From the IMG/VR virus record IMGVR_UViG_3300031521_000015: 64,000 nucleotides of DNA. One strand, given 5' to 3'. Positions 14,624-54,411 of this stretch are shown here, piece by piece (positions within the stretch are counted from its first letter, which is position 1; every line of letters begins with the position of its first letter). The position numbers and the translations under genes were made by a program. The DNA comes from a virus. Under the pieces are notes generated by a model. It saw nothing but the letters and a program-made list of their open reading frames with translations. It was not told the origin of the DNA and did no database searches.

Positions 14624-14657
14624 TTTACAATAATACCTAAATATGGTATTATTGTAA
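14624..14657 (+). promoter_or_regulatory. SigA-type promoter of cassette B inside a perfect 13-bp inverted repeat
   Basis: TTTACA(14624)-17-TATTAT(14647); TTACAATAATACC 14625-14637 / GGTATTATTGTAA 14645-14657. Confidence 0.75.
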
Positions 14658-14763
14658 TGTAGGATAAATAAGGAAGTCATGAGCCTTATTGAAAAGGAGT
14701 ATTCCGAACTCCCTTCCTATATTACATATAAATCGGAAAATAAATTCAACGGAGGAATTAGTG
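14653..14763 (+). ncRNA. Structured 5' leader, copy B (palindromic loop TCATGA)
   Basis: P1 14653-14664/14715-14726; P2 14667-14673/14684-14690; P3 14696-14700/14708-14712. Loop TTCCGA pairs with TCGGAA 14733 or CGGAGG SD 14750. Confidence 0.8.
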
Positions 14764-16293
14764 ATGGAAGAAAGGGAATATCAACAAATTATTGAACAAT
14801 GGGAACTAGAACATAATGAATTAATTGAAAGTGGAACGTGTAGAAAGATATTTTTAGATGTATTACCTAAATCAAATCACAATGGTGGAAGTATAGATTG
14901 GAAAAATAGCAACGACTATAAAGTATATTTTATAGATAAAAATGTTGCAGGTTATGTAATGATAATAAATTATAGAAGTATTGGACAAGAACTACAAATA
15001 TCTTATCTACAAGATATATATAAAATAAATACAGGAGATTTTACACAATGTAAATTAGGGAATATAGTTGGTACAAAAACAAGTAATTTTAAATATAAAA
15101 TTGGGCAAATAATAAAAGATAATAAAAGAGATATAACAATAACCGATTATAAAAATGAAAAAGGAAAAAGTAAACTTTATAAATACAAATGCAATACGTG
15201 TGGATTTGATTGTGGAGAACATTATTCAATAAGAGATAAGGAATATAAAGATGAATTTTGGATACCAGAACATAATCTACTTAGTCGAGATACAGGTTGT
15301 GCTTGTTGTAATAGTACAATTATAGTAAAAGATATAAATAGCATATCTAAAACAAATCCAGAAATGGCGAAGTTCTTTTTAAATATTGAAGATACTTATA
15401 TTCATAGTGAATGTAGCAATAGAAAAGTATATGTAAAATGTAAAGAATGTGGGAAAATAAAGAAGAAAAAAGTTTCTGTAAATTCTTTTGTTTCAAATGA
15501 AAGTATTGGTTGTGAATATTGTGGCGATGGGAAAAGTTACGCTGAAAAATTCATGTTTAATATTTTAACTCAATTAAATATAGAATTTATTCCAGAGTAT
15601 TCTCCGGATTGGATAGGCAAAAGAAGATATGATTTTTACATTCCATCAATGAATTTAATTATAGAGATGGATGGTGGTTGGCATGAAAATGACAACAAAA
15701 TGAGTGGACAAAGTTCTAAGGAGTCAAAAGCAATTGATGATTATAAAGAAGAAATGGCTATGTTACATGGAATAAAGAAACCAATTAGGATTAATTGTTA
15801 TTTTAGAATTAGAAAATATGAAAATATAAAGAATAATATACTAAATAGCGATTTAAATTATTATTTTGATTTAAATAAAGTTGATTTTAAGAAAGCTGAT
15901 GAACAATCTCATAAGCCAATAGTAAAAGAAGCTTGTGAATTATGGAATAGTGGGATTAGAAGTACAGGGGAAATAGGTAAGATTTTAAAAATATCAAGTT
16001 CATGTGCACTTAGTTATTTGAAGAAAGGTAAAAATCTCGATTGGTGCGATTATACTGTAGAAGATAGTGAAAAATTCAAAATAGAACATATTAGAAAAGT
16101 CACAAAAAACAATTGTAAACCAGTTGAAATATTTAAAGATAATATAAGTCAAGGAATATTTCCATCAGCACAAGAATTAGATGAAAAAAGTGAAGAATTA
16201 TTTGGAGCAAAGCTAAACTTTTGTAAAATATCAGCAGTATGCCGAGGTAAAAAGCCACAATATAAAGGATATACTTTTAAATTTGTAGCCTAA
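14764..16293 (+). CDS. Free-standing putative homing endonuclease (Zn ribbons, PD-(D/E)XK-like nuclease, HTH, NUMOD1-like tail)
   Basis: Multiple CxxC, RYDFY..IIEMDGGWH, C-terminal ISAVCRG..YKGYTFKF. Real start GTG 14761 or ATG 14764 after GGAGG. Confidence 0.75.
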   Translation: MEEREYQQIIEQWELEHNELIESGTCRKIFLDVLPKSNHNGGSIDWKNSNDYKVYFIDKNVAGYVMIINYRSIGQELQISYLQDIYKINTGDFTQCKLGNIVGTKTSNFKYKIGQIIKDNKRDITITDYKNEKGKSKLYKYKCNTCGFDCGEHYSIRDKEYKDEFWIPEHNLLSRDTGCACCNSTIIVKDINSISKTNPEMAKFFLNIEDTYIHSECSNRKVYVKCKECGKIKKKKVSVNSFVSNESIGCEYCGDGKSYAEKFMFNILTQLNIEFIPEYSPDWIGKRRYDFYIPSMNLIIEMDGGWHENDNKMSGQSSKESKAIDDYKEEMAMLHGIKKPIRINCYFRIRKYENIKNNILNSDLNYYFDLNKVDFKKADEQSHKPIVKEACELWNSGIRSTGEIGKILKISSSCALSYLKKGKNLDWCDYTVEDSEKFKIEHIRKVTKNNCKPVEIFKDNISQGIFPSAQELDEKSEELFGAKLNFCKISAVCRGKKPQYKGYTFKFVA

Positions 16294-21809: not shown

Positions 21810-21931
21810 AGGAAGAAATAAATATAATAAGTAGTCGACGATTTGTTATATTGAATGGGTTAGCTCCAATTAACCTTTCTTCCTTTTTTATTTAATATTG
21901 GAGAAATAAATTATATTGGAGGAATTTAAGA
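21810..21931 (+). ncRNA. Structured 5' leader, copy C (palindromic loop GTCGAC)
   Basis: Follows TGtTATAAT 21794-21802. P1 21810-21818/21876-21884; P2 21821-21832/21841-21852; P3 21858-21863/21870-21875. CTCCAAT pairs with ATTGGAG 21897 or 21915 (SD). Confidence 0.8.
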
Positions 21932-23551
21932 ATGGAAGGAAATAGACAATTAAATCAAGAAGAATATATGGAGATTATTGAAAAATTTAAGGAAAATAAT
22001 AGAGAAGATTATGAGAGTGGTAAATGTAAAAAGATATTTTTGGAATGTTTGCCTAGATGGGGAAAAGGTGGAAAAGCAAAAGAAGGTAGTATAAATTGGA
22101 TTGAATCAGTGAATAAAAATTATTATATATTTTTTATATATGGTGTTCATGAGGATTATATAAGATTAATAGATTATTCATATGATAAACAATTAAAAAT
22201 AACAATTGAATATTATGGTGAAAACTTAAGTTTAAATGCAGGGAGCATTAATAATTGTCAAATAGGCAAACTATTCAATATAAGGAATAAAGAATATTTA
22301 TATAATAGAGGTGATATTGTCAAAGGAAAGCATTCAAATTTATTGATATTAGAACAATTAATTATTAAATCAAACTATAGTTATAAAGTTAAAGGATATA
22401 AATATAAATGTTTGTCATGTGGAGATATAGATGAAATTTCTCAAAGAGATATTCTACGTGGAGTAGGTTGTGAAATTTGTTGTCCAAATTCTCAAAAAGT
22501 CGTAAAAGAGATAAATTCTATATGGAAAACGAACCTAGAACTAGTTAAATACTTTGTAAACGAAGAAGATACTTGGAAATACACAATTGGTAGCCATAAA
22601 AAAGTGTGGTTTAAGTGTTTGGACTGTTATTATAGAAAAGAAATGACTATTGATAATTTTGTAAGGAACGGATTTTCATGTAATAAATGTGGGGATGGTA
22701 TTTCAGTGCCAAATAAAATAATGTTTAATGTGTTAGAACAACTAAATGTTCAATTTGAAGCAGAAAAGAAAGTAGAATGGTGTAAATTTTTATATAAAAA
22801 TAAACGAAGACAAGGTTATTATGATTTCTATTTTGAGCAAGATGGCAAAAAATACATTATAGAAATGGATGGGGGTCTAGGTCATGGTAAGGGGAATTTT
22901 AAGAATAATATGACTGCTAAAGAATCACAATTTATTGATGATGAAAAAGATAGATTAGCTATTGAACATGGAATTGAAGTAATTAGAGTTGACTGTGACC
23001 ATCGTATGTACTATGGATTTGATTATATAAAAAATAATATATTATCTAATGTTAATATAAATAATTTGTTTTTATTAGCCAATATTGATTGGAGTAAGGT
23101 TTTGAAATTTGTTTCGTCAAGTAGAATCAAAGAAGCTTGTGATTTATGGAATATCGGTATTCATAGTACAACTGAAATTTCCAAAATTATGAAGATGAGC
23201 AGAACAACAATTTGCACGTATTTAAAAATAGGATTTGAACTGAAAATAACAGATTATACTGTGGAAATTTCAAAAAATATTAATAATAATAATACTATAG
23301 AAAGAAATAAACAAAAGTTAAGTACTAAAATAATTTGTATAGAAAATGGTATTATATTTAATTCCATTTCTGAATGTGAATTAAATAGTTTTAAAATATT
23401 TGGAATAAAAATGTTTAATAGTGCTATAACTAAAGTATGTCAAGGGAAACAGCAACATCATCAAGGATATCAATTTAGATACTTAAAAGACCTTACCGAA
23501 GAACAAATAAAAGAAATTCAAGAAAATGCAAAATTAAATCAAGCAATATAA
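21932..23551 (+). CDS. Free-standing putative homing endonuclease, paralogue of 14764 and 30821
   Basis: Same N-terminus (KKIFLECLP..INW), CxxC ribbons, YYDFY..IIEMDGGLGH, NUMOD1-like end. Confidence 0.75.
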   Translation: MEGNRQLNQEEYMEIIEKFKENNREDYESGKCKKIFLECLPRWGKGGKAKEGSINWIESVNKNYYIFFIYGVHEDYIRLIDYSYDKQLKITIEYYGENLSLNAGSINNCQIGKLFNIRNKEYLYNRGDIVKGKHSNLLILEQLIIKSNYSYKVKGYKYKCLSCGDIDEISQRDILRGVGCEICCPNSQKVVKEINSIWKTNLELVKYFVNEEDTWKYTIGSHKKVWFKCLDCYYRKEMTIDNFVRNGFSCNKCGDGISVPNKIMFNVLEQLNVQFEAEKKVEWCKFLYKNKRRQGYYDFYFEQDGKKYIIEMDGGLGHGKGNFKNNMTAKESQFIDDEKDRLAIEHGIEVIRVDCDHRMYYGFDYIKNNILSNVNINNLFLLANIDWSKVLKFVSSSRIKEACDLWNIGIHSTTEISKIMKMSRTTICTYLKIGFELKITDYTVEISKNINNNNTIERNKQKLSTKIICIENGIIFNSISECELNSFKIFGIKMFNSAITKVCQGKQQHHQGYQFRYLKDLTEEQIKEIQENAKLNQAI

Positions 23552-30627: not shown

Positions 30628-30707
30628 AGAAATTTATTAAAACAATTATCTTATTTGTAATTTATTAGTTATAATTACTCTTAAAGTATGTTATAATATA
30701 TAGATAT

Positions 30708-30820
30708 GGAAGGATAGATTGAAAAGTCGCGAGTTCAATTGATAAGCTCTCTCCAATGAGTTTCCTTTCCTTTTATACATATTGGAGCAATAAATTAAAT
30801 TATATTGGAGGAATTTATTA
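30708..30820 (+). ncRNA. Structured 5' leader, copy D (palindromic loop TCGCGA)
   Basis: Follows TGtTATAAT 30689-30697. P1 30708-30714/30763-30770; P2 30717-30723/30734-30740; P3 30745-30749/30758-30762. CTCCAAT pairs with ATTGGAG 30781 or 30804 (SD). Confidence 0.8.
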
Positions 30821-32401
30821 ATGGAGAGAATTAGCCAAGAAAAGTATTTAGAAATTATAAATAAATTTAAAGAAGAAAATAAAGAAGATTATGAGAATAG
30901 TAAAATTAGAAAAGTATTTTTAGATATTTTACCACATGGAGGAAAAGGTAAAAAGGGAGGAAATATATCTAATAAATGTATTAATTGGGATTACTCAAAA
31001 AACTTCAAAATATATTTCATATACAAGGACAGAGAAGGATATATTAAAATTATTGATTATGAAAGAGATAAAAAGAATTATATATTAATAGAATTCAATG
31101 ATAAGGAAGATGAGGTTTTTACTTGTGATTTTCAAAGATGTAAAATAGGAAAAATATTAGGTAAAGCAACTGGAGATTTTAAAATAGAAATAGGAATGAT
31201 ATTTAAAGATAATAAAAGAAATATCACCATTACTGATGCAAAGAAAGATGAAAAAGGGCTAAAATATTATAAATATAAATGTAACGAGTGTGGGTTTGAA
31301 TGTGGCGAACATTATTCTACTAGAGATAAAATATATAAAGAAGAGTATTGGATAACAGAAGGAAATTTAAAAGATGGAAAAGGTTGTTCTTGTTGTTGTA
31401 GTTCATCACATATTGTAGTCAAAAATATTAATTCGATTGTTATTACTGATCCTTGGATGATACCTTATTTTCAAGGAGGATATGAGGAAGCTAAGAAATA
31501 TACTGCTAGAAGCAATGAAAACATAATACCGTTATGTCCTGACTGTGGAAAAGTAAAATCAAAGAAAATGAGGATAAATACAATTTATGAACATCATTCA
31601 ATAGCTTGTATTTGTAGTGATAAATTTCCCTATCCCGAAAAATTTGTTTTTAGTATTTTGATACAATTGGGGCTAGATTTTGAAACACAATTGAATAAAT
31701 CTTCGTTTAATTGGTGTAAAAAATACAAATATGATTTTTATTTTGAATATAACAATGAACAGTATATTGTAGAAACTCATGGTATGCAACATTATGAAGA
31801 AGGATTTACGCATTTAAAAGATTCTAGAATGCTTAAAGAAGAACAAGAAAATGATAGATTAAAGAAAGAATTAGCTTTAGCAAATGGTATTAAAGAAGAA
31901 AATTATATAGTGATAGATTGTAGGAAAAGTACATTAGAATGGATTAATAATAGTATATTAAACAATGAAAAGATGATAACTAAATTTGATTTGAGTAATA
32001 TTGATTGGATTCAATGTTCAGAATTTGCATGTATTAATTTAGTTAAAAAAGTTTGTGAAATTAAACATGACAACTGTGAAATGACAACTACAGATATAGG
32101 AAATATTCTTAACATAAAAGGTCAAACTGCGAGAAAATATTTAAAGCAAGGTTCTGAAATATGGGATTGGATTAATTATGATGCAAAAGAAGAAATGGAA
32201 AAAGCATTGGGTAAAAAAGTAGAAATATTTAAAGATGGAATAAGTTTAGGTGTTTTTAAGTCTATAATTGAATTAGAAAGACGAAGTTTAGAAATATTTG
32301 GAGTTAAATTATTTAATGCTAATATAGGGAAAGTTTGTCAAGGGATAAGTGGACATCATCATGGATTTACATTTAAATATATTGATTCGGAAATATATTA
32401 A
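30821..32401 (+). CDS. Free-standing putative homing endonuclease, paralogue of 14764 and 21932
   Basis: CxxC ribbons, KYDFY..IVETHGMQH, NUMOD1-like IGKVCQG..HHGFTFKY. Confidence 0.75.
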   Translation: MERISQEKYLEIINKFKEENKEDYENSKIRKVFLDILPHGGKGKKGGNISNKCINWDYSKNFKIYFIYKDREGYIKIIDYERDKKNYILIEFNDKEDEVFTCDFQRCKIGKILGKATGDFKIEIGMIFKDNKRNITITDAKKDEKGLKYYKYKCNECGFECGEHYSTRDKIYKEEYWITEGNLKDGKGCSCCCSSSHIVVKNINSIVITDPWMIPYFQGGYEEAKKYTARSNENIIPLCPDCGKVKSKKMRINTIYEHHSIACICSDKFPYPEKFVFSILIQLGLDFETQLNKSSFNWCKKYKYDFYFEYNNEQYIVETHGMQHYEEGFTHLKDSRMLKEEQENDRLKKELALANGIKEENYIVIDCRKSTLEWINNSILNNEKMITKFDLSNIDWIQCSEFACINLVKKVCEIKHDNCEMTTTDIGNILNIKGQTARKYLKQGSEIWDWINYDAKEEMEKALGKKVEIFKDGISLGVFKSIIELERRSLEIFGVKLFNANIGKVCQGISGHHHGFTFKYIDSEIY

Positions 32402-43853: not shown

Positions 43854-44750
43854 ATGATGAAAGAAAAATTCACTAAGATACCTAACGACTTTATTAAAGG
43901 AGACTTTGATTTGAACTCAAAAGAATTAACAATAGCAACAATATTATTAATGACTAGGAACGGAAAAGATGTGTGTATATTTACACTAAAATGGTTATAT
44001 GACATATTAAACATAGGTGCTAAAAACACATATAGTCAGAATGAAGTTAAAAAGATACTAAAGATGTTTGGAGATGAAGAATTGTTCTTCTATCATGACA
44101 ATATATTTTTAGATAATGAGGAAATTGTGGATATTGATTCTATAAGTAAAACAGATTTAATATTTGCTGAATTATATCATGATATGACTGATAGTTTTAC
44201 AATGCTTATTGATAATGACATAAAACAAATTATAAAATATAGTAATGAAAATAAAATAGATACATATTCGCTATTGAGTACATATACATATATTTGTAGT
44301 TGTATAAACAATAATGAACAATGTGAAGATTACTTACTATGCTTCCCGTCACTACTTAATATATCTGATAGTGTGAATATAGCAGAAAAGACAGTATTGA
44401 AATATATAAATATCCTCAAAGACTTAGATATATTCATATTTGATTATGCAGGTTATAAGGTATTAGCTGATGGAAAAGTAAAGAACGGTAAGATGTTCTA
44501 TACAAGAGTAGGGAATGAAGAAATACTCTTACAAAGACTACAAAAAGAAAGACAAGAACATGGATATTACAATATAAGTAGAAGACTAAAAGATAAGGGT
44601 AATCTCAAAAGATCATTGAAACAAAAAATAAATGACTTAGAAAAGAAAGCTAGTATTAATCCTATAGAGATAGAAGAACTAAAATTAATAAAAGAAGAAT
44701 ATAAAGAACTAAACTCTGAAGAAAAAGAGAAAAACTCCAGTGAGCTTTAG
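43854..44750 (+). CDS. Winged-HTH protein, replication-initiator-like
   Basis: FTKIPN N-terminus; CFPSL..I...VNI.EKTVLKYINILKD HTH. Confidence 0.6.
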   Translation: MMKEKFTKIPNDFIKGDFDLNSKELTIATILLMTRNGKDVCIFTLKWLYDILNIGAKNTYSQNEVKKILKMFGDEELFFYHDNIFLDNEEIVDIDSISKTDLIFAELYHDMTDSFTMLIDNDIKQIIKYSNENKIDTYSLLSTYTYICSCINNNEQCEDYLLCFPSLLNISDSVNIAEKTVLKYINILKDLDIFIFDYAGYKVLADGKVKNGKMFYTRVGNEEILLQRLQKERQEHGYYNISRRLKDKGNLKRSLKQKINDLEKKASINPIEIEELKLIKEEYKELNSEEKEKNSSEL

Positions 44751-52806: not shown

Positions 52807-52812
52807 TATAGT

Positions 52813-52923
52813 AGGGGATAGCAAGGAGTAATTAACCATGTCAATAAGAGTATTATCCTAGATACTCTTCCCTTTTTACATATATAATGCTAGGATAACA
52901 AATTAAATTATTATAGGAGATGA
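52813..52923 (+). ncRNA. Structured 5' leader, copy E (palindromic loop TAATTA)
   Basis: P1 52813-52818/52869-52874; P2 52821-52826/52836-52841; P3 52847-52853/52862-52868. Loop TATCCTAG pairs with CTAGGATA 52890 or TAGGAG SD 52914. Confidence 0.75.
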
Positions 52924-54411
52924 TTGGACATGTTATTGACAAAGGAAGTTGAAGTAGAACTAAATGGAACTAATGTAAAGCATTATGAAGAATTGGGGTA
53001 TGAAATACTTAGAGAAAAGAAATGGAAGAAATGGTCAATTCCCACGGGTACTAAAATAAAAGTAAAAATTGAAGATGTGCCAAAAGGTTCTCATACAGAA
53101 GTGCAATGTTTGTGTGATTATTGTTTAGAAAAAGGTATAAGGACAGTAATTAATAAAAGATATCAAACACACATAAGAGAAAATAAAGATATTTGTGGTA
53201 AATGTAGTAAGAATAAAATAAAAGAAATACATGCGTTAGAAATTCAAACAAAAGTAAAAGAAACTTTTGACTTAGATATAACAAAGGATGGATATTATGA
53301 TTTAAAAAATGTTCAAAAAGTTATTGAATATTTTATATCAAAAAATAATAGATTTCCTAATACTAAAGAAATGTTATCTGTTTTGTTTATTAGTAATTCA
53401 ATTAGTAAAATGCATGGAGGTATGACCAATATTCAAAAAACTATGGGATATAAAAAAGAAGATTTATTGGTTGATGATAGTGGTATGTCTAATAGATCAG
53501 TTTATGAATATTATACAGCTATGTTTTTGTTAGGATTTAATATTTCATTTAAAAGAGAACAATCTCCATTTCCAAAAGGAGAAGGATTATTCAGAAGTGA
53601 TTTTACTTTTTATTTAGAAAATAATAAAACTATTCATTGTGAAGTATGGGGATACCCTAAAGAATTAAAGTCTAGTTTAGGAATAGCATATAATAAAAAT
53701 AGAAAAATCAAAGAAATATTATATGAAAAACATAATGTAGAATATATATCAATAGAACACGATGTTTTTATAAATGGTCTTGAACATATGCAAACAGAAT
53801 TAAAAAATATATTTAATGATTTTATTATAAATAAAGATTTAGTGTTGTCAGTAGAATATTTATTACCACCATACAAGTTATCTGATACTCAAATATTAGA
53901 AAGAATGATGAAATTTAGTGAAGATAAAAATACTCTTCCATCCTGTAGCCATTTAAGAGATATCGGGCAAAGAATGTTATATGAAGAAGTAATAAAAAGA
54001 TATAAAACTTATAAAACATTTGCAGATAAATTTGATAAAAAATTACTTTCTGATGTATATTGGGACACAGAAAAAGCACATAAATCTATATATGATATAT
54101 GTAATGAATTAAATAAAGATGTATTTAGTAACAATCTATTAGAGAAAGTAATAAAAAATAATAATGAATATAGTGGATTGGGTAGGTTTATTAGTTACCA
54201 AGGTGATTTTGTTGATTATTTTTTAGATTTTATAGAAATAAAAATAATCAATGAAAATGAAATGATAGCTGATGATATTATGAAAAAACTAGTTAATTTA
54301 ACATTTGGTAAATATCCACATAGAAAAAACAAAGTGACAGATTTCCAAATAGAAAAATCAAAATATCTATTAAACTTAATAAAAGAAAAGCAATTTAAAG
54401 AGGTAGTTTAA
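52924..54411 (+). CDS. Free-standing putative homing endonuclease (distinct PD-(D/E)XK-like type)
   Basis: N..HYE.LGY and CDYC..CGKC N-terminus; RS.YE..FRSDF..IHCEVWG nuclease-like motif; own promoter and terminator. Confidence 0.65.
   Translation: MDMLLTKEVEVELNGTNVKHYEELGYEILREKKWKKWSIPTGTKIKVKIEDVPKGSHTEVQCLCDYCLEKGIRTVINKRYQTHIRENKDICGKCSKNKIKEIHALEIQTKVKETFDLDITKDGYYDLKNVQKVIEYFISKNNRFPNTKEMLSVLFISNSISKMHGGMTNIQKTMGYKKEDLLVDDSGMSNRSVYEYYTAMFLLGFNISFKREQSPFPKGEGLFRSDFTFYLENNKTIHCEVWGYPKELKSSLGIAYNKNRKIKEILYEKHNVEYISIEHDVFINGLEHMQTELKNIFNDFIINKDLVLSVEYLLPPYKLSDTQILERMMKFSEDKNTLPSCSHLRDIGQRMLYEEVIKRYKTYKTFADKFDKKLLSDVYWDTEKAHKSIYDICNELNKDVFSNNLLEKVIKNNNEYSGLGRFISYQGDFVDYFLDFIEIKIINENEMIADDIMKKLVNLTFGKYPHRKNKVTDFQIEKSKYLLNLIKEKQFKEVV

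Follow-up and report, generated by a model that had tools for sequence, protein, structure and literature searches.

In T-even phages, free-standing or intron-borne homing-endonuclease genes such as I-TevI and those of the seg and mob groups have their Shine-Dalgarno sequence hidden by RNA pairing, which limits production of a risky enzyme. To our knowledge, these ribosome-binding-site-hiding leaders are simple hairpins, and no conserved three-way junction, decoy word or self-complementary loop has been reported for them. Bacterial loop-loop pairing that responds to RNA concentration and gene dosage is well established in plasmid copy control, as in RNAI/RNAII and CopA/CopT. In HIV-1, the dimerisation initiation site (DIS, in SL1) is a 5'-leader hairpin whose loop of about 9 nt holds a 6-nt palindrome with flanking purines (PMC7357161). 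Those purines are conserved, stack on the intermolecular helix and are needed for dimerisation; the palindromic word differs by lineage (GCGCGC versus GUGCAC) and is still palindromic, and the kissing dimer can pass into an extended duplex (PMC7357161). Non-retroviral RNAs that homodimerise through short palindromes include the oskar 3'UTR (6 nt), hatchet (ACGU), and HYER1 and HYER5; the hatchet palindrome is conserved, not strictly, and its purpose in vivo is unknown (PMC7357161; PMC12990946). Functional RNA homodimers are few in nature (PMC7357161; PMC12990946). ROOL, GOLLD and OLE are natural bacterial or phage RNA-only homo-oligomers seen by cryo-EM, evidence that prokaryotes make use of RNA quaternary structure (PMC12286853).

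The leaders considered here were found in a phage DNA stretch of 64,000 nucleotides, which was analysed whole and is referred to below as the window. The first-pass annotation had claimed that five leaders in it each carry, in the loop of a hairpin designated P2, a different self-complementary hexamer set between purines, and direct reading of the sequence bears this out. TTATAA occupies positions 1111-1116, TCATGA 14677-14682, GTCGAC 21834-21839, TCGCGA 30727-30732 and TAATTA 52829-52834. All five are perfect Watson-Crick palindromes, no two are alike, and purines stand on both sides of each (AG/A, AAG/G, A/G, AAG/G and AG/A in copies 1-5). Three of the words (TCATGA, GTCGAC and TCGCGA) contain G and C, as had also been observed, in a window with 27.8% G+C. 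The span singled out at that stage, 14667-14690, coincides exactly with the P2 hairpin of leader copy 2 as bounded by the covariance model.

The five leaders, all on the + strand and about 110 nt long, have a common layout. A promoter is followed by a junction of the form P1 - UA(G) - P2 - GAWAA - P3 - P1', then by a U-rich stretch, a word complementary to the P3 loop, the motif AAYAAATT, and a second such word that overlaps the Shine-Dalgarno (SD) sequence; the hexamer lies upstream of the start codon by about 90-100 nt in each copy. Copy 2 (14656-14769) illustrates the arrangement: P1 pairs 14656-14664 with 14715-14723, P2 (14667-14690) has a 7-bp stem and the loop AAG-TCATGA-G, and P3 (14696-14712) carries the loop ATTCCGA, which faces a decoy word TCGGAA at 14733-14738 and the SD word CGGAGG at 14750-14755, ahead of the ATG at 14764. 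Its sigma-70-like promoter (14624-14652; TTTACA-17-TATTAT with TG) ends 4 nt before P1, so that the transcript should start at about the first base of P1. The three-way junction P1-P2-P3 with its decoy and SD words is likewise present in copy 1 (1091-1202), both by covariance model and by minimum-free-energy (MFE) fold, with P2 at 1102-1124 and the loop AG-TTATAA-A. Copy 3 (21810-21937) has a longer P2 (21821-21852) with a 12-bp stem and the loop A-GTCGAC-G. Covariance-model matches also define copy 4 (30706-30826; P2 at 30717-30740, loop AAG-TCGCGA-G) and copy 5 (52810-52919; P2 at 52821-52843, loop AG-TAATTA-A). MFE folds of the single sequences give the junction, with the hexamer unpaired at the tip of P2, for four of the five leaders. 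In each of the five copies the loop of P3 complements the SD word, with which, by reading, it covaries in homologues.

Two further features of this layout were observed. The promoter of copy 2 lies within a perfect 13-bp inverted repeat (14625-14657) that spans the -35 and -10 boxes, and weaker dyads are visible by eye at the matching promoter position of copies 1 and 5; the repeat could be an operator, or could form a hairpin in read-through transcripts. Additionally, the 3' strand of P1 leads directly into the U-rich tract in all copies (approximately 1146-1165, 14715-14732, 21877-21900, 30776-30795 and 52871-52890), so that the junction, when closed, might double as a transcription attenuator ahead of the decoy.

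The leader was modelled as an RNA family in two steps. A first covariance model (R1), for which copy 2 was the sole input, recovers all five copies and, in the 64 kb, no other credible match; copy 1 scores 66 bits with R1 and 98 bits with the second model, R2. Copy 3, which was outside the R2 training set, still scores 36.2 bits with R2 (E 2.5e-4). Compensatory changes occur at every one of the 21 modelled pairs of P1-P3 in 25 homologues, and 91.7% of cells are paired, as against 58% when shuffled and 44-49% with slid partners; within the P2 stem the figures are seven of seven pairs and 96.6% of cells, and since this alignment was fitted to the covariance model, these pairing percentages are somewhat flattered. 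As regards a riboswitch, the junction bases UA(G) and GAWAA are conserved, no ligand is indicated, and the genes behind the leaders have nothing to do with metabolism. On this comparative evidence the leader is a real RNA family with a covariation-supported three-way junction. It is also a new one, missing from Rfam: a search of the leaders against Rfam 15, int-alpA (RF02996) included, gave no match at gathering thresholds and none at E<=1.

Each leader precedes a free-standing nuclease gene on the + strand. Copies 2, 3 and 4 stand before homing-endonuclease-like genes at 14764-16293 (509 aa; phrog_4538, phrog_559 and phrog_9084), 21932-23551 (539 aa; a treble-clef zinc finger, DUF4379, and an I-HmuI NUMOD-like C-terminus) and 30821-32401 (526 aa). 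These three are paralogues of about 520 aa with 38-40% identity. Copy 1 is followed by a free-standing endonuclease-like gene of 365 aa (1207-2304) with PHROG matches to HNH endonuclease and endonuclease VII, and copy 5 by a homing-endonuclease-like gene of 493 aa (52930-54411; phrog_12131); neither has kinship with the three paralogues, and single-protein locus searches with these two genes returned no relatives. All five genes are assigned by PHROGs and Pfam matches to homing or HNH-type endonucleases, and they are surrounded by genes for the head, the portal and further virion parts in an AT-rich phage genome. Neither megablast nor blastn matched the region to any GenBank phage, and an exact 49-mer taken from the window had no match in IMG/VR.

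The window has other compositional peculiarities. Its + strand is asymmetric in base content (A 41%, T 31%, G 17%, C 11%), and nearly all of its long open reading frames lie on that strand. GATC palindromes are strongly depleted (TGATCA 1 against 22.8 expected, AGATCT 2 against 17.3, GGATCC 0 against 2.9), and GGCC-containing palindromes are absent; the pattern suggests host restriction systems as the pressure behind it. Despite this depletion in the window, TGATCA recurs as a P2 loop word in relatives.

The probability that a P2 loop would be palindromic was calculated both with loops drawn from genome composition and with permuted loops, and the result is the same either way: 0.06-0.18 per loop, with a product over the five of about 8e-6 to 9e-6. 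That ten of ten hexamer-flanking bases in the window are purines has a probability of about 0.004. Across the whole window, + strand hairpins with a palindromic hexamer loop occur at chance level (75, as against 83 in shuffles), and TTATAA and TAATTA appear 118 and 72 times. The A/T-only loops of copies 1 and 5 therefore mean little alone, because such hairpins are common by chance here; what makes the palindromes significant is their homologous position, together with the evidence of the homologues. The G/C-containing words are rare, with TCGCGA occurring once in 64 kb, in the loop of copy 4, and GTCGAC twice. The five palindromic P2 loops are not a product of chance. Potential partners elsewhere in the window were also sought: the search for a hairpin with the same hexamer as a trans partner recovered only a chance-level TCATGA hairpin at 44177, and the counts of TCGCGA and GTCGAC in the 64 kb leave no second nearby site with which these G/C hexamers could pair in cis.

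Homologues were sought starting from the nuclease paralogues, which led to 22 IMG/VR loci whose contigs were scanned with R2. Several leaders per phage were found in these contigs. One copy was recovered in a Bacillota metagenome-assembled genome (MAG) and seven more in genomes of the same order, in which eight of 149 genomes matched; class-level and family-level genome samples yielded no further copies. A loop-independent degenerate DNA pattern run over IMG/VR gave no leader, by covariance-model search, among the 80 matches listed. Most metagenome loci that encode homologous nucleases have no leader. Among cultured phages, the nearest homologue of the nuclease (34% identity) belongs to Clostridium perfringens phage vB_CpeS_BG3P (OK247671.1), where the search of the upstream region (L212:1300-1392) found no leader, and a short plain 5' UTR lies behind a TGTTATAAT promoter; the leader is thus not obligatory for the nuclease family. 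Before homologous nucleases in other phage contigs (L010:1405-1480, L013:1400-1460 and L005:1360-1450) there is a reduced leader with no P1 and no P2, composed of one hairpin, the loop of which pairs with a word further downstream that precedes AAATAAATTA. From these sequences, the three-way junction seems to have been elaborated from a simpler pseudoknot leader.

Some of these loci also bear on how the leader moves. Two near-identical leaders with identical P2 and P3 arms (L027, G002:186651-186774, minus strand, 68.7 bits; L031, G002:190716-190839, plus strand, 64.9 bits) lie 4 kb apart on opposite strands before different genes, and the leader, to judge from such placements, behaves as a portable cassette. 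In two contigs, a lone 8-bp hairpin with the loop AG-TAATTA-A lies outside any recognisable leader (L041:1501-1593, that is G001:60425-60517; and L065, G012:21864-21956). Its loop is identical to that of P2 in a leader on the same contig, and it could be a trans partner or a remnant.

The claim that the loop stays palindromic while its letters change was examined on 36 P2 arms from IMG/VR phage contigs and Bacillota genomes, and it is confirmed there: a perfect 6-nt palindrome is present in 21 of the 26 distinct arms. Counted by distinct P2 loops, 12 of 17 are perfect 6-nt palindromes where 1.5-1.7 would be expected (P about 1e-11). As an internal control, the P3 loops in these RNAs were counted as well: none of 22 is palindromic, with 0.8-1.7 expected. 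Among later bacterial copies, six of seven are palindromic, one of them adding a ninth type, TAGCTA, to TTATAA, TAATTA, TCATGA, TCGCGA, GTCGAC, TTGCAA, TTCGAA and TGATCA; there is also an 8-mer, GTAATTAC. Loops composed of A and U only (TTATAA and TAATTA) make up about 40% of the total. The flanking bases vary more in the family than in the window, with C or U in several homologues, or no 3' flank. An origin by chance in an AT-rich genome, or by a mutational bias that perfects inverted repeats, could draw on the abundance of A/T-only palindromes in the window and on the chance-level frequency of hairpins that carry them in their loops. The small probabilities obtained for both the window and the family tell against it, as do the G/C palindromes, rare in the window and yet occupying the loops, and the P3 loops of the same RNAs, which hold none; purine mismatches between stem and palindrome persist, moreover, where a mutational bias should have corrected them. 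An explanation of this kind is scarcely credible.

Changes within the palindrome were then counted on a MAFFT alignment of the 36 P2 arms, MAFFT being blind to palindromes, with positions 1-6, 2-5 and 3-4 treated as pseudo-pairs. In all, 82.4% of cells are paired, against 64.7% in shuffles, and 26 cells are changed on both sides of a pseudo-pair, against 7.2 in shuffles; none of 500 shuffles reaches either value, although the sequences are related by descent and shuffle-based P values overstate their independence. In slid registers, 17-41% of cells pair, the -3 slide excepted, where one of the three pairs is countable. CG, AU, UA and GC all occur at pair 2-5. At the adjacent pair 3-4 the combinations are AU and GC, with CG besides in seven rows that lie one column off register; because these seven rows are scored as failures, the test is conservative. 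Positions 3 and 4 are neighbours and unable to pair within one loop, so that only two antiparallel loops fit the pattern. Close relatives show the same replacement of one palindrome by another. Outside the loop, window copy 1 shares 90% identity with its counterpart in a related 121-kb phage contig, and the two loops read TTATAA and TAATTA, respectively; a second close pair, 84% identical, carries TTGCAA and TTCGAA; and TCATGA and TCGCGA sit on near-identical stems. This comparative record supports the view that the P2 loop has been selected for self-complementarity while its letters change, which is the signature expected of a loop-loop homodimer.

The exceptions are informative in their own right. 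TTGTGA and TAGCTG are palindromes if G.U wobble is allowed, and CGTACA and ATGCAA are one mutation short of TGTACA and TTGCAA, palindromes of the form T-N4-A. TCTCGA occurs in a decaying copy in a bacterial genome (L211:1501-1608, in G128), in which P1 is unpairable and the decoy mutated; a close relative (L209) has TCGCGA. Two short P2 arms, with a GACG tetraloop and with UCGCU, hold no palindrome, and some relatives have no P2, P3 with its partner downstream and the A-rich word being all that they keep. From their sequences, most of these exceptions look like intermediates or decay. The existence of members without the palindrome or without P2 means that dimerisation is not essential to the core leader, and relatives that dispense with P2 altogether mark it as an accessory arm, outside the minimal leader. 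Where the P2 stem is down to 2-3 bp, as in C-TGATCA and A-TTGCAA, the palindrome is kept, which suggests that the palindrome, and not the stem, is the purpose of the arm.

A loop kept self-complementary implies that its partner is an identical loop. The best explanation for the P2 palindromes is that they mediate a kissing-loop homodimer between leaders, a reading to which we assign a probability of roughly 60% on comparative and modelled grounds. The energetic predictions differ among copies. Nearest-neighbour self-duplex energies are -6.6, -10.3 and -9.5 kcal/mol for copies 2, 3 and 4, and -2.0 kcal/mol for the A/U-only copies 1 and 5. Extended P2 dimers are 3-7.5 kcal/mol better than non-palindromic controls in copies 2-4, with no gain in copies 1 and 5.

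It is also possible that the loop has some other partner, a protein or a tertiary contact within the leader, and that its palindromy is a by-product. The poor predicted dimerisation of the A/U-only loops fits this account. So do the first and last positions of the hexamer, which are nearly fixed (U...A in 29 of 36) and, together with the common 5' AG, might constitute a recognition feature; the conserved UA(G) and GAWAA junction bases likewise suggest a specific tertiary fold. However, a single-stranded palindrome has no symmetry that a protein could read, and can have meaning only through pairing with an identical sequence or in double-stranded DNA. The covariation between positions 2 and 5 and between the adjacent positions 3 and 4 (AU, GC, CG) has no intramolecular or protein explanation, and at least nine different hexamers occupy the same place. 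A partner other than the loop itself is consequently rather unlikely.

The second setting in which a palindrome has meaning, double-stranded DNA, offers a different account, in which the hexamers act as sites for a dimeric protein or a restriction-like enzyme, or in a cruciform, and their position in an RNA loop is incidental. Six-base palindromes are classic dimeric-protein or type II sites, and the hexamers lie about 20 bp downstream of promoters that are themselves in inverted repeats. No single protein fits at least nine hexamers at one homologous position, however, and hexamer type does not track the downstream gene family. The hexamer is off-centre between the stem arms, with AAG on one side and G on the other; the wobble palindromes TTGTGA and TAGCTG are sensible only in RNA; and there is no general excess of palindromic tips in the hairpins of the genome or in P3. 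An action in DNA is, on this balance, very improbable.

If leaders do dimerise, the design of the loop suggests how. The leader is transcribed from its own promoter ahead of the homing-endonuclease-like gene, with its P3 loop facing both the decoy word and the SD sequence. Two like leaders would join at the tips of P2, where 6 bp between the loops would make a helix with the flanking purines as its caps, and this kissing dimer may turn into an extended duplex. Dimerisation would help the anti-SD pseudoknot to hold nuclease synthesis low, or to make it dependent on transcript concentration. The dimer might do so by stabilising the closed leader fold; alternatively, the P2-loop-P2' stack, a helix of about 20-30 bp, could become a target for double-strand-specific RNases. 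We infer from the sequence record that the dimer would form in infected cells; a point against it is that transcripts of homing endonucleases may be too few for two of them to pair, unless co-localisation brings them together.

A more ambitious proposal had accompanied the dimer in the first-pass annotation: that the five hexamers are a selected, orthogonal code, in which each paralogue dimerises only with its own kind, senses its own transcript level or gene dosage and flips the adjacent anti-SD pseudoknot. That the dimer flips the pseudoknot, senses dosage or tells self from an endonuclease-free co-infecting allele is speculative. The two parts have fared differently. The kissing homodimer is supported, since palindromy is kept as the letters change; the code is not, given that distinctness within genomes is not significant, identical loops co-occur and A/U-only loops cross-pair. 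In its favour, the five window copies are all different, the related 121-kb phage contig also has five different types, and G/C loops self-pair far better than they cross-pair with most others. In the closest pairs, loops change faster than the rest of the leader, and this faster turnover keeps the idea alive at a low probability. When loop types are shuffled among seven genomes, however, one same-type pair is observed against 3.3 expected, with a P of 0.12 that itself overstates the evidence because the seven genomes share ancestry, and distinctness within a genome is also what old paralogy would produce. Two identical TAATTA leaders stand ahead of different genes in a single phage contig. 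Copies 1 and 5 are predicted to cross-pair just as strongly (-2.2 kcal/mol) as each pairs with itself (-2.0), and copies 3 and 4 to cross-pair at -5.3 kcal/mol. The same hexamers recur with unrelated genes and with different pseudoknot words, and nothing ties P2 to the choice made by the pseudoknot. A selected code is therefore doubtful, and the five different hexamers are most simply explained by old divergence under a constraint of self-complementarity. The fuller version, in which each hexamer would serve as an addressable tag for self-recognition and dimerisation would move the P3 loop from its decoy to its SD site or back, is unlikely. Were it true, translation of a selfish nuclease would be set by the concentration of its own transcript or by gene copy number, and a single phage would hold a protein-free, RNA-only dosage sensor with several orthogonal channels.

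The kissing-loop homodimer would have consequences of its own. The leader family is a small natural system with at least nine interchangeable self-pairing words and an SD-pairing pseudoknot as a readable output, and this combination makes concentration-dependent RNA-RNA regulation directly testable. The words are a possible source of orthogonal dimerisation tags for RNA engineering, and the leader may represent an extra layer in the restraint that phages place on selfish nucleases. A literature search found no description of such a leader, and no account of any mRNA leader, bacterial or phage, in which a palindromic kissing loop brings about dimerisation.

Set against the systems described at the outset, the leader resembles the T-even ribosome-binding-site-sequestering leaders in possessing a segment complementary to its gene's own SD sequence, from which translational repression is predicted; it has no sequence or structural homology to them, and its architecture is new. 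It would share loop-loop pairing with RNAI/RNAII and CopA/CopT, but those pair two RNAs from opposite strands, whereas the leader would pair with itself. ROOL, GOLLD and OLE (PMC12286853) are large noncoding RNAs with many interfaces that form cages; the leader, at about 110 nt, is cis-acting and has one predicted interface. The oskar, hatchet and HYER RNAs serve in mRNA localisation or are ribozymes, and none is the translational leader of a nuclease gene. The likeness to the HIV-1 DIS, which had been drawn from the window sequence, holds as to design in the window copies, each with a purine-flanked 6-nt palindrome in a loop of 7-10 nt (PMC7357161). Like a DIS-type site, P2 presents at least 6 nt of self-complementary sequence that has no way to pair inside its own loop (all five copies in the window, 21 of 26 distinct arms in the family), combined with compensatory changes. 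Unlike the DIS, the leader belongs to the mRNA of a DNA phage or prophage, has no packaging role and shows no sequence homology; its hexamers are mostly U-N4-A and often A/U-only, its dimer is a predicted one, and its hairpin is one of the arms of a three-way junction to which an anti-SD pseudoknot is coupled. By analogy, the P2 loop would be DIS-like or oskar-like in function while being a member of none of these families.
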